Shown in pieces: positions 13,092-23,247 of a stretch of DNA of 32,000 nt. The notes below the pieces were generated by a model, which had not been told where the DNA came from, did not search any database, and saw only the letters and a program-made list of their open reading frames with translations. The stretch covers positions 176,901 to 208,900 of the forward strand of contig JBHLKY010000010.1 of NCBI GenBank assembly GCA_048886185.1, given 5' to 3'. The DNA is from Candidatus Hermodarchaeota archaeon. Lineage in GTDB: Archaea > Asgardarchaeota > Heimdallarchaeia > Hodarchaeales > Hodarchaeaceae. Positions within the stretch are counted from its first letter, which is position 1. Every line of letters begins with the position of its first letter. A program made the position numbers and the translations under genes.

Positions 13092-14318
13092 ATGATACAT
13101 AAAGGTGCAAACTTCTTGAGTTTTAAGAGAATTAATACTCGTTCTAATGAACTTTCATCTTTAACTCTTGCTTTTAAAGCTCATAGAAGTCGATTTAAGA
13201 GATCATTTCAAATGATTCTTGATCGGAAGAGTCCTATAGAATTAAAACAATATCCAGATGAATTTCTCAATGCATTCAACAACATAAAATCTCCAGGAGT
13301 TGCATTAAAGCATTATTATAGGCTAATTTTGTTGTTATTCCTAGCTAAGGATGACTTCACAGATCTGAATAAGAATGAAATAGATATAATATTCAAGGAG
13401 GTCGGAGTTGAATTATCCATCGATGTGTGGAAAAAATTAACAGGGCATTTAAGCAATGATTCTGATAATCTTCTGTACAAAATAAGGTTGGGGAAAGACA
13501 CCAGATTATTATTTTCCTCTAATAAAGATTTAATTAAGATAATGACGAGATTATTAACAAATTCTCAATCTATTGAACCTCCTCATGACTATTCATTAGC
13601 CATATTTAGTAAATCAGCTCCTAAGGATAAAAATAACGTTGATTATTGTTTAGATTTTTCTAATTACTTCAAAGAAGGTTTACCATCTGAAGATCAATGG
13701 TTAATTATAGAGGACGAATTAACAACTACAATTGAAACAATTTATGAAACTCACTTTGAAACAACACTTTTATTAAAAGAGTGTAAGCCTCATCCCTCTC
13801 TCTCTTTCATTCTAGGACATTCAGCTAATTATTTTGAGGGTTTGAAGTTATATATGTATCAGAATGGTCAATATTGGAAATACGAAAAGATAAATGAGAA
13901 TATTCGTGCCTCTAATCACTGGAATATTTCTACAAAATATAGAAAACCTTTAAATGATGATGAAATTAATGTTTTAATAAGTGTAAGCGATCCAATTATA
14001 CGATATGCCGAGAAGTATCTTCAAAAAGATAGAGAGGATACCAAATTCACTGTTCACTTTTCAATTAAACCTGAACCACAAGTAAACAGCATCACCGATC
14101 AAGATGATGCACTGAGAAAAGTTGATGCTATTTACACGTATCTAACGCGACTTAAAACGAAGATCCCTTATATTAAGGTTCATTTATTTATTTGGGCCCA
14201 AGCTGCTTTCATTTCATTACTTGGAATGAGACTTTCCTCTGTTGCCCTTGTTCAACTATATGAATTTGATCAAAAAACAGGAAATTTTGAACCTAGCCTA
14301 TTACTAGATCGTTATTAA
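13092..14318 (+). CDS. SAVED-domain protein with an uncharacterised (wHTH-like) N-terminal region
   Basis: The C-terminal ~240 aa carry SAVED hallmarks: LDFSNYF..LPSEDQW, HPSLSFILG, YQNGQYW, INVLISVS, VHLFIWAQAAFISLLGMRL, VQLYEFDQ..F.PSLLL. The true start may be TTG 13116 (AGGTG SD). Confidence 0.8.
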   Translation: MIHKGANFLSFKRINTRSNELSSLTLAFKAHRSRFKRSFQMILDRKSPIELKQYPDEFLNAFNNIKSPGVALKHYYRLILLLFLAKDDFTDLNKNEIDIIFKEVGVELSIDVWKKLTGHLSNDSDNLLYKIRLGKDTRLLFSSNKDLIKIMTRLLTNSQSIEPPHDYSLAIFSKSAPKDKNNVDYCLDFSNYFKEGLPSEDQWLIIEDELTTTIETIYETHFETTLLLKECKPHPSLSFILGHSANYFEGLKLYMYQNGQYWKYEKINENIRASNHWNISTKYRKPLNDDEINVLISVSDPIIRYAEKYLQKDREDTKFTVHFSIKPEPQVNSITDQDDALRKVDAIYTYLTRLKTKIPYIKVHLFIWAQAAFISLLGMRLSSVALVQLYEFDQKTGNFEPSLLLDRY

Positions 14319-14472: not shown

Positions 14473-14486
14473 GCACTGTATCGCAC
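14473..14486 (+). promoter_or_regulatory. Distal GCAC-N5-CGCAC box (copy 1)
   Basis: GCACtgtatCGCAC; the same motif occurs four times, twice per cassette. Confidence 0.65.
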
Positions 14487-14591
14487 TTTATTGAACTTGA
14501 AATATCTGCTTTATTTTTCTCTATAAAGAAATTTAACAAAATACTTCTTTGTTTAAAGTATAGAAAGGGTTTTTTCTATAGTACTAAAATT

Positions 14592-14605
14592 GCACATGTT
14601 CGCAC
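14592..14605 (+). promoter_or_regulatory. Proximal GCAC-N5-CGCAC box (copy 1)
   Basis: GCACatgttCGCAC, 119 bp downstream of the distal box and ~22 bp upstream of the TATA-like element. Confidence 0.65.
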
Positions 14606-14618
14606 CACTTATTTAAAA

Positions 14619-14635
14619 CCATAAAACTTAAATAT
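14619..14635 (+). promoter_or_regulatory. Putative BRE/TATA element (copy 1)
   Basis: ccataaaacTTAAATAt, equivalent to ccataaggtTTAAATAa in copy 2 at the same distance from the palindrome. Confidence 0.55.
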
Positions 14636-14653: not shown

Positions 14654-14679
14654 TATTGACCTGGAATCATTGGTCAATA
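14654..14679. promoter_or_regulatory. Palindromic operator or 5' hairpin TTGACC-N10-GGTCAA (copy 1)
   Basis: TATTGACC-tggaatcatt-GGTCAATA, perfect 8-bp arms, at the expected transcription start ~25 nt after the TATA. Confidence 0.7.
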
Positions 14680-14705
14680 CCATTAGATTAATAAAGGTGA
14701 TAAAC

Positions 14706-14771
14706 ATGGCAGATAAAGAGAAGAAAACAAAAACAAAAAAACCACGAGCTAAAAAAACAAAGAAGAAATAA
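14706..14771 (+). CDS. Lys-rich microprotein A1 (21 aa) MADKEKKTKTKKPRAKKTKKK
   Basis: AAGGTGA SD upstream of ATG; paralog at 22950-23012 with 57/60 nt identity over 20 codons. Confidence 0.8.
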   Translation: MADKEKKTKTKKPRAKKTKKK

Positions 14772-14827
14772 TTTAGCTAAAGAATAGGTGATTTTTAAAA
14801 TAATTTTTTTTTAAAAGGGTGATTGAT

Positions 14828-14947
14828 ATGAGAAAGGGACCAAAAAAGAAGCCAATCTATGAAGAAGAAGAAGAGGAAGAAGACTGGGAGGACGAGGACG
14901 ACGATTGGGACGATGAAGACGAAGATTGGGATGAAGAGGATAATTAA
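14828..14947 (+). CDS. Basic-head/acidic-Trp microprotein B1 (39 aa) MRKGPKKKPIYEEEEEEEDWEDEDDDWDDEDEDWDEEDN
   Basis: GGGTGA SD; paralog at 22784-22897 with synonymous changes and frame-preserving length differences. Confidence 0.82.
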   Translation: MRKGPKKKPIYEEEEEEEDWEDEDDDWDDEDEDWDEEDN

Positions 14948-14966: not shown

Positions 14967-15004
14967 GAGGTGAAATTTCCCCTTTATTAGGGGAACTCCA
15001 CCTC
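14967..15004. terminator. Hairpin 3' of cassette copy 1 (terminator or stability element)
   Basis: GAGGTG..TTCCCCT-ttatt-AGGGGAA..CACCTC between convergent units; sequence-related hairpin in copy 2. Confidence 0.65.
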
Positions 15005-22270: not shown

Positions 22271-22696
22271 ATGGAAGAATCTCGTTCTCATGCCGTTATT
22301 GTGTCTAATGTTCATCGTGAATTTCGAATTGGTGAGATTACTGTTCATGCGCTTCGGGGGACTAATATGGAAGTCTCTGAAGGCGAATTTGTTATCGTGC
22401 TAGATCCAAGTGGATCTGGAAAATCAACATTGTTAAATCAAATTGGAGGGATAGACTCCCCAACTAAATGTAGTGTGAAGATCCATGGGGAGAATATAAC
22501 AGACTGGCGTGGAGGGAAACTATCTGAATATCGTCGTAATAAGGTTGGTTGGATTTTTCAATTTTTTAATCTTATTCCTTCTTTAAGAGCATGGGAAAAT
22601 GTCGCACTCGCTTTAGAGTTCAAAGGTGATCGAAAAGAGATATATAAGTTTTATAAAAAGAGAGATATTATGTACAAAAAAAAGGCCCTTATGTAA
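22271..22696 (+). pseudogene. Truncated ABC transporter ATP-binding subunit (LolD/MacB-like)
   Basis: Walker A is mutated to DPSGSGKS (GAT at 22403); Q-loop GWIFQFFNLIP is present; similarity ends near ENVALAL, with no LSGGQ signature or Walker B. Confidence 0.88.
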
Positions 22697-22703
22697 TTAA
22701 TAG

Positions 22704-22753
22704 AGGTGATTTTCCCTTAGTTAACCCTAGCAAAGGGAAAGGGAAAATCACCT
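22704..22753. terminator. Hairpin 3' of cassette copy 2
   Basis: Perfect 15-bp arms AGGTGATTTTCCCTT (22704-22718) and AAGGGAAAATCACCT (22739-22753), with an inner CCCT/AGGG stem. Confidence 0.75.
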
Positions 22754-22783: not shown

Positions 22784-22897
22784 CTAATTATCCTCGTCAT
22801 CCCAATCGTCGTCGTCTTCCCAATCCTCTTCTTCTTCTTCTTCTTCTTCATAGATTGGTTTCTTAGGAGGAACTTTCTTCTTTGGAGCGTATTTCAT
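22784..22897 (-). CDS. Basic-head/acidic-Trp microprotein B2 (37 aa) MKYAPKKKVPPKKPIYEEEEEEEEDWEDDDDWDDEDN
   Basis: AAGGTGA SD; shares KKPIYE7-8DWED..DWDDE.. and terminal EDN with B1. Confidence 0.82.
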   Translation of the reverse strand: MKYAPKKKVPPKKPIYEEEEEEEEDWEDDDDWDDEDN

Positions 22898-22949
22898 ATT
22901 TTTCACCTTTTTCTAAATGTTTTTGATAAAGATTTTCCTTGTAATTAGA

Positions 22950-23012
22950 CTATTTCTTTGTTTTTTTAGCTCGTGGTTTTTTTGTTTTTGCTTTCTTCTC
23001 TTTTTCTGCCAT
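22950..23012 (-). CDS. Lys-rich microprotein A2 (20 aa) MAEKEKKAKTKKPRAKKTKK
   Basis: AAGGTGA SD; paralog of A1. Confidence 0.8.
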   Translation of the reverse strand: MAEKEKKAKTKKPRAKKTKK

Positions 23013-23115: not shown

Positions 23116-23129
23116 GTGCGGACGTGTGC
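23116..23129 (-). promoter_or_regulatory. Proximal GCAC-N5-CGCAC box (copy 2)
   Basis: Reverse complement reads GCACacgtcCGCAC. Confidence 0.65.
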
Positions 23130-23233
23130 GATCATAACAAAACAAAATACGTTAATATAATACTTTAAATGAAAGATAAAGTTATTAAATGACTTTTCAG
23201 AGAAAAATCACACAGTCTTCATTGTTCAGTGAA

Positions 23234-23247
23234 GTGCGGTACTGTGC
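23234..23247 (-). promoter_or_regulatory. Distal GCAC-N5-CGCAC box (copy 2)
   Basis: Reverse complement reads GCACagtacCGCAC, 118 bp from the proximal box. Confidence 0.65.

Follow-up and report, generated by a model that had tools for sequence, protein, structure and literature searches.

Prothymosin-alpha and histone H1 are established to form a disordered polyelectrolyte complex of high affinity (PMC7661507), and the acidic partner is thought to act there as a chaperone of the basic nucleic-acid binder. The disordered protein DSS1/Sem1 (PF05160), which is small and acidic and contains Trp, shields surfaces that bind DNA (PMC11329725, PMC7641332). Among the regulators that respond to nucleotide signals, Csa3 consists of a CARF domain and a winged helix and is a cyclic-oligoadenylate-responsive transcription factor (PMC8699464, PMC8844856), and in the CalpL-CalpT-CalpS system a Lon-SAVED protease frees a sigma factor (PMC11417357). 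SAVED or CARF domains fused to DNA-binding domains are predicted to be regulators; TIR-SAVED oligomerises when its ligand binds, and SAVED domains assemble head to tail (PMC9704534).

The window analysed here is a stretch of 32,000 nt with a GC content of 32-36%, taken from contig 10 (positions 176,901-208,900) of a 4.84-Mb, 96%-complete assembly, in which PCNA and RFC are encoded on contig 9. The sequence derives from sediment metagenomes, and its host is not a haloarchaeon but an Asgard archaeon with AT-rich DNA. The window contains a Lys-rich micro-protein gene (peptide A) and, next to it, a gene for an acidic aromatic micro-protein (peptide B). The pair is like prothymosin-alpha/H1 in that two highly and oppositely charged, apparently disordered partners come together without folded domains. 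However, A and B are unrelated to these proteins in sequence, are 3 to 10 times shorter and lie side by side in one cassette, B has regularly spaced Trp residues and a basic head of its own, and binding between A and B is here a prediction. B is like DSS1/Sem1 in being small, acidic and studded with aromatic residues after a short basic start, in its proposed nucleic-acid mimicry and in belonging to a host lineage near the eukaryotes, but the PF05160 profile misses B, and DSS1 has no dedicated gene for a Lys-rich peptide partner. Single-stranded-DNA-binding proteins carry acidic C-terminal tails with aromatic residues, which occupy basic clefts in competition with nucleic acid, and the delta subunit of Bacillus RNA polymerase carries a Lys tract before its acidic tail, similarly to the head of B. 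Those tails are attached to folded domains, whereas B is free-standing and accompanied by a partner polycation. Small adjacent and perhaps co-transcribed genes, expected mutual neutralisation and variable gene order recall the type II toxin-antitoxin systems as well, but neither A nor B has a toxin fold or a database match, a DNA-binding antitoxin is missing, and both products are low-complexity polyions.

Upstream of the pair lies a gene for a protein with a SAVED domain. Its likeness to Csa3 consists in a nucleotide sensor fused to a small second domain and in a gene standing beside the promoters that its product would control. In contrast to Csa3, the sensor is a C-terminal SAVED and not a CARF domain, neither CRISPR nor CBASS is present in the genome, the target would be a micro-protein cassette and the DNA-binding fold is a candidate. 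With CalpL-CalpT-CalpS it would share, in the role proposed below, a SAVED sensor with a transcriptional output instead of direct killing, but the system of the window is archaeal and lacks the protease domain, the anti-sigma/sigma pair and the type III CRISPR.

Peptides A and B as genes

Peptide A (14706-14771, plus strand) is 21 aa long and 52% Lys, its net charge is +10 and its core is KKPRAKK. After Met1 it contains no hydrophobic residue at all, and for this reason the idea that A could be a membrane toxin was ruled out. Peptide B (14828-14947, plus strand; 39 aa, net charge -19) begins with a Lys/Pro head including a G-P-K motif and KKP[IV]Y, continues with a Glu run and ends with three (D/E)n-W repeats. 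In both genes GGTGA, which we take to pair with the archaeal 16S anti-SD sequence, is located 5-6 nt 5′ of the ATG (14696-14700 for A and 14818-14822 for B). An inverted second copy of the cassette was found 8 kb away (22784-23012, minus strand), encoding a 20-aa A peptide of net charge +9 (22950-23012) and a 37-aa B peptide of net charge -12 (22784-22897), and about 330 nt of its upstream DNA as well as its 3′ hairpin can be aligned with those of copy 1. In the whole 4.84-Mb genome, A-like peptides are encoded at these two loci only, while the acidic-Trp pattern occurs in both cassettes and in the tail of PCNA and nowhere else. Beside copy 2, a 141-aa ORF (22271-22696) resembles the N-terminal (Walker A) part alone of an ABC ATPase; as it ends next to the cassette, it may be a truncated gene at the site of an insertion or duplication.

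Relatives of this form of the cassette, referred to as type 1, were gathered by DNA search, by profile search and via the neighbouring gene, and nine type-1 cassettes from other genomes and metagenomes were compared. The A and B ORFs are open in each, every indel is a multiple of 3 and an SD sequence precedes all starts. The pN/pS ratio was 0.30 for A and 0.18 for B, and the differences at codon positions 1, 2 and 3 (118, 104 and 203 for A; 169, 126 and 539 for B) showed an excess at the third position. The spacer between the two ORFs, which is 46-64 nt long (124 nt in one cassette), is unconserved, in contrast to both SD sites and start codons. In addition, the exact protein sequence of B is a called gene in one public assembly. 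Considering the SD sites, the purifying selection, the third-position excess, the in-frame indels and the conservation, A and B are almost certainly real, translated protein-coding genes. Two unconserved features were observed in the spacers: a T9 run in copy 1 of the window (about 14804-14812), which could end some transcripts after A, and a strong extra hairpin in the 124-nt spacer of the most divergent type-1 cassette (L164:4660-4780).

The initial annotation described A and B as an oppositely charged pair encoded in one operon. The charges were recomputed and agree with those given there for both copies. As for the operon, a 162-nt metatranscriptome contig from sediment, which belongs to a relative with 90% identity, covers A, the spacer and the beginning of B (the segment corresponding to 14701-14840). 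Since such a library can contain DNA, and this was the one RNA contig reaching the locus among the read runs compared, it hints no more than weakly at co-transcription in a relative, which leaves this part of the description weakly supported.

Pairing, spread and relatives of the peptides

In this family, a Lys-rich A peptide of 19-26 residues always adjoins an acidic aromatic B peptide of 35-47 residues on the same strand, in the order A-B or B-A. Pairs were detected in 10 of the 22 genomes of the genus (G000, G001, G016 (two each), G003, G006, G008, G012, G014, G019 and G021), which is a lower bound because profile searches with low-complexity sequences are weakly sensitive. Beyond the genus, they occur in G064, which belongs to another family of the same class, in G180 from another Asgard family and on the metagenome contigs L155, L164, L166, L178, L183 and L184. 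The type-1 pairs have the order A-B and a B peptide with KKP[IV]YEEEE. In the divergent type-2 form, B starts with M-K-x-G-P-K followed by D/E-W repeats and A starts with MAKKKK, the order being B-A in five genomes (G003, G008, G014, G019 and G021) and A-B in two (G006 and G012); G008 and G019 carry both pair types. Both of the pairs outside the genus are in the order B-A, that of G064 with a spacer of only 13 nt and that of G180 with Phe/Tyr in place of Trp. Type-2 pairs (L010, L014 and L023) share a conserved leader motif of their own, ~...CAAACGTTTTTC..GGTCAGATTTTCC..., at 60-90 nt before B, which is unrelated to the GCAC boxes described below.

The initial annotation proposed checking that A and B always co-occur, and this was borne out: independent occurrence was looked for and not found. 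In the survey of the class, each B-like peptide of the family was accompanied, at a distance of no more than about 300 nt and on its own strand, by a Lys-rich partner before or after it. Starting from the other partner, the SD-MAKKKK start occurs 18 times in 400 Asgard genomes, while the reversed control pattern does not occur. Upstream of all six short ORFs with this start (19-23 aa), at a distance of 245-290 nt, there was an ORF for an acidic aromatic peptide, and the remaining matches were the N-termini of ordinary proteins. One protein that opens with MAKKKK like the type-2 Lys-rich peptides is a 72-residue archaeal histone-fold protein in the same genus (L187, G012:C75). A scan for the two-Trp acidic pattern returned, among the matches listed, mostly unrelated bacterial acidic proteins, and the small bacterial acidic-Trp ORFs sampled had no Lys-rich partner. 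On two Chloroflexota contigs (L038 and L076) the pattern hit small zinc-ribbon proteins (CPEC...CPEC) with acidic Trp tails, which resemble carrier proteins of the LysW type and are unrelated to B. Weak HMM matches in G270, G382 and G016:C36 were rejected as pairs. At L170 (G270:C42, about 1489-1680), in another Asgard family, an acidic ORF of 63 residues with Trp/Phe and the head KDKKKKP was found without a Lys-rich partner within 400 nt, and this ORF is either a solitary relative or a look-alike.

Across 15 pairs both partners are of low hydrophobicity and opposite charge, as in complexes of the prothymosin/H1 type. The net charges of A and B co-vary (Spearman -0.80, 15 pairs, kinship between the pairs being ignored), A ranging narrowly from +8 to +12 and B from -10 to -21, and in each of the two genomes carrying type-1 cassettes in duplicate, the higher positive charge of A is matched by the higher negative charge of B. 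The computed sum of the charges at a 1:1 ratio is still negative, from -1 to -11. Taking the data on pairing and charge together, A and B are very likely to be functionally coupled. The co-variation also fits the suggestion of the initial annotation that B could be the chaperone or antidote of A, in a relation of the prothymosin/H1 type. That annotation is borne out in part, its suggested roles in chromatin control and toxicity having gained no support.

Database searches placed the peptides in no described family. A and B, singly or as profiles, had no match in Pfam, NCBIfam, PADLOC and PDB. A profile built from 13 B peptides gave one match among 1.84 billion protein representatives, and this was another copy of B, mis-called with TAG read as Gln. 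When the genome was searched in six frames with the PF05160 profile of DSS1/Sem1, only an unrelated match of 13.7 bits was returned and the A and B loci were not hit; the 13 B peptides gave no match to this family either at E up to 10, where composition filters may hide weak similarity. The analogies drawn at the outset, of A to H1 or H2B tails and protamines and of the pair to prothymosin and the Bacillus RNA polymerase delta subunit, could not be traced to common descent: no homology of A or B to these proteins, or to toxin-antitoxin or defence families, was found. A presumed resemblance of the B head to eukaryotic TMA7 was dropped. The type-1 cassette motif was absent from the IMG/VR viral contigs, and no description of such charged micro-protein pairs was found in the literature.

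A likeness of the B tail was met in PCNA. In the genome of the window (G000), PCNA (L003:688-1587, contig 9) is the sole other protein with an acidic-Trp tail, and the DNA encoding the two tails is 72% identical over 80 nt. In all of the 21 PCNAs examined from the genus, the protein ends with a 30-37-residue Glu/Asp tail that contains 1-3 Trp or Tyr and resembles the tail of B, whereas in other families of the class the PCNA matches stop short of the acidic tail. As this likeness is kept genus-wide, mimicry of the PCNA tail or of nucleic acid by B is a concrete possibility.

The control region and the SAVED-sensor gene

Among the non-coding parts of the module, conservation is highest between the sensor gene and A, and this leader is longer than the ORFs themselves. 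It includes two boxes of direct repeats, both on the plus strand. The distal box (14473-14496; GCAC-N6-GCAC-N6-GAAC) consists of three direct repeats with a 10-bp period and is invariant in nine cassettes. The proximal box (14592-14605; GCAC-N6-GCAC), which is also formed by invariant columns, follows 119 bp after the distal box and precedes the TATA box by about 22 bp. The inter-box spacing is 118-119 bp in all cassettes, and the distance from the proximal box to the SD of A is 104 nt (107 nt in copy 2). Only 13 GCAC-N6-GCAC sites exist in the 4.84 Mb, four of them at the two cassettes, and paired sites are restricted to the cassettes; as the other single sites are mostly inside long ORFs, no wider regulon emerges. 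A TATA-like box of the archaeal TTTAAATA consensus (14628-14635, plus strand), conserved in nine cassettes 78-82 nt before the start of A, is a putative promoter element. About 29 nt past the start of this box, near the expected transcription start, there is an inverted repeat, TTGACC-N10-GGTCAA (14654-14679, plus strand), the pairing of which is kept in all nine cassettes through compensatory changes (TTGGCT/AGCCAA, TGGCC/GGCCA) and one G-U form. This element may be an operator or else a hairpin at the 5′ end of the RNA.

B is followed by a 3′ stem-loop (14967-15004, plus strand) of about 14 bp and of the GGTGATTTTCCC...GGGAAAATCACC type, and then by a T-rich stretch. In the consensus fold of eight cassettes three pairs are changed on both sides and G-U variants occur, and the stem-loop probably either ends the transcript or stabilises it. 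Copy 2 has a corresponding stem-loop (22704-22753, minus strand) and a control region (23116-23247, minus strand) with the distal box at 23234-23247 and the proximal box at 23116-23129, 118 bp apart, and no SAVED gene adjoins it. In both 3′ hairpins, the 5′ arm is SD-like (GGTGAT) and the 3′ arm is like the 16S anti-SD sequence (ATCACCTC); in copy 2 a 20-codon GTG ORF begins inside the hairpin. Rfam 15 gave no covariance-model match in the window segment 14300-15100 at E up to 1. The arrangement expected of a leader attenuator was not found, as what follows B is the conserved hairpin and a hydrolase gene in convergent orientation, and the downstream genes vary from one genome to the next.

The orphan SAVED-sensor protein (13092-14318, plus strand; 400-408 aa) contains its SAVED domain at about residues 154-406 (PF18145, E 7.5e-18). 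NF033611 of NCBIfam matches the same residues with its model positions 8-260 of 261 (E 1.7e-27), and the SAVED effectors of PADLOC align from residue 154 only. This is the only SAVED gene in the whole genome, and because no SMODS cyclase or Cas10 (PF18144, PF22335, TIGR02577) was found in the 96%-complete assembly, the control genomes having scored, the sensor is regarded as an orphan. Residues 1-153 form an all-helical, unclassified domain without a match in Pfam, which is a candidate for the DNA-binding output. The AlphaFold models were of low confidence (pLDDT 47 for the N-terminal 238 residues and 52 for the full length, with 30-50 at the N-terminus), and only a helix-helix-helix-hairpin pattern was recognised by eye at residues ~70-145. 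An hhalign comparison of the N-terminal alignment with two local winged-helix proteins (MarR and AsnC-type) gave probabilities below 1%, and the ESM Atlas gave nothing usable for residues 9-235.

Orthologues of the sensor were found in 6 of the 83 genomes of the class, all of this genus: five with a type-1 cassette, and G017, where the contig stops inside the SAVED gene. At every type-1 locus with enough sequence (G000, G008, G019, G001, L164, L166 and L183) the orthologue lies directly upstream on the same strand, L178 retains a C-terminal SAVED remnant upstream of its type-1 cassette, and the adjacency holds down to an orthologue of 63% identity. Likewise, all type-1 loci combine the boxes with the SAVED gene. 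In contrast to this stable core, the outer neighbours vary from genome to genome, with a hydrolase, a metallophosphatase, a NosD-like or a CxxC protein upstream and a hydrolase, an ABC-2 permease, a ketopantoate reductase or MarR downstream, which argues that the sensor, the boxes, A and B constitute one module. These data showed that the subtype present in the window is a four-part module made up of the SAVED gene, the two-box promoter, A, and B with the 3′ hairpin. The same boxes are present in the copies that lack a sensor, namely copy 2 of the window and, in G001 and G016, the second of the tandem copies, which is compatible with a single factor acting in trans. The SAVED-cassette adjacency is confined to one genus, so it could partly reflect inheritance, and SAVED is missing beside most non-type-1 pairs, which makes the sensor link lineage-specific and leaves the core function unexplained. 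Nevertheless, the strongest functional clue, which was missed in the initial annotation, is this conserved link of the cassette to the upstream SAVED gene and the box-bearing promoter.

Readings of the pair and their meaning

A and B are a real, undescribed and unannotated Asgard micro-protein pair with a conserved, sensor-linked control region. The reading that we prefer, with a probability of roughly 0.45 for the model as a whole, is a functionally coupled, mutually binding pair under the control of a SAVED regulator. The exclusive co-occurrence, the dedicated cis-element, the non-enzymatic-looking N-terminal domain and the head-to-tail assembly of SAVED domains point to a box-binding regulator, and we lean slightly towards the view that the SAVED protein regulates the cassettes. 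The direct-repeat boxes would be bound by its N-terminal ~150 residues; if the ligand induced head-to-tail oligomers, these would match the 10-bp pitch of the repeats, and a nucleotide signal could switch both cassettes. One short mRNA would then yield A and B together. Direct binding of A to B is predicted with odds a little better than even: as disordered polyelectrolytes, the two would bind each other by charge, the Trp residues of B adding cation-pi contacts to the Lys residues of A, and as a result neither free polyion would accumulate. The active species might be the complex, possibly as a condensate, or one partner released from it. By mimicking nucleic acid or the tail of PCNA, the acidic aromatic end of B could titrate basic proteins that bind nucleic acids, A serving as its buffer; alternatively, A could be a nucleic-acid binder held by B. 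The pair might serve in antiviral defence, in stress or in controlling replication or translation. A wider version of the model, in which a polyelectrolyte or condensate pair is widespread in the Asgard archaea near the eukaryotic stem, B mimics nucleic acid or the PCNA tail, and one lineage placed the pair under a SAVED-type transcription factor as a non-enzymatic, signal-induced effector, is rather doubtful.

Coupling would not imply mutual action if A and B were co-regulated but each docked on a third partner in replication or translation, for instance as small accessory subunits or competitors, the B tail imitating the PCNA tail and A binding rRNA, DNA or the tail of PCNA. PCNA being the only other product of the genome with an acidic-Trp tail, the presence of this tail throughout the genus with matches of other families stopping earlier, and the similarity of the tail-coding DNA all speak for such docking. 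However, the likeness may come from mere low complexity, the adjacency maintained despite inversion of the order and the co-variation of charges are left unexplained, and no conserved replication or ribosome neighbour was seen at the loci, so we regard this explanation as unlikely. A charge-based toxin-antidote pair or abortive-infection effector, in which free A would coat nucleic acids or ribosomes, B would neutralise it and SAVED would release or induce it on infection, appears less probable again. SAVED sensors mostly control defence effectors (PMC9704534), the SAVED part has matches in PADLOC, the tight linkage in both orders is reminiscent of toxin-antitoxin pairs and the cassette is duplicated within genomes. 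On the other hand, A and B themselves match nothing in PADLOC, Pfam or NCBIfam, and A has no hydrophobic residue. No cyclase or Cas10 was found in the genome and no cassette in the IMG/VR contigs; the neighbours are ordinary metabolic genes rather than a defence island, and sensor-less pairs are common.

The extreme codon runs, the conserved 5′ inverted repeat and 3′ hairpin and the length of the conserved non-coding leader relative to the ORFs would also suit a locus that works as RNA with the peptides as by-products, or one in which nascent chains with Lys runs or Asp/Glu runs stall or destabilise ribosomes and serve as translation sensors. This is improbable, given that the amino acids are under purifying selection, those at the Trp positions, in the G-P-K head and in the KKPRAKK core among them, that the next gene is convergent, which leaves no downstream gene to be regulated, that both products are retained when the order flips, and that Rfam gave no match and the A-B spacer is unconserved. 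As the acidic run is a GAA/GAG/GAC repeat, the other frames of which also read as charged, chance ORFs in low-complexity, AAG/GAA-rich DNA had to be considered too, but the conservation, SD sites, selection and co-occurrence described above effectively refute them.

On the preferred reading of a bound, SAVED-controlled pair, the link of SAVED with a direct-repeat promoter suggests a new SAVED output, namely the transcription of non-enzymatic peptides, and it would also extend the use of a nucleotide signal beyond CBASS and CRISPR. Should A bind B, the two would make up the smallest genetically paired polycation and polyanion in nature, and as synthesizable peptides they would be suitable for work on disordered complexes and condensates in a prokaryote. 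The acidic aromatic tail common to B and PCNA points to a lineage-specific short linear motif. The A and B genes are invisible to annotation, yet they are conserved and under selection in Asgard archaea labelled Hodarchaeota, a group that is often placed nearest the eukaryotes. If the wider version of the model is true, the pair would represent a prokaryotic counterpart or forerunner of prothymosin/H1-like or DSS1-like biology, together with a new class of SAVED output.
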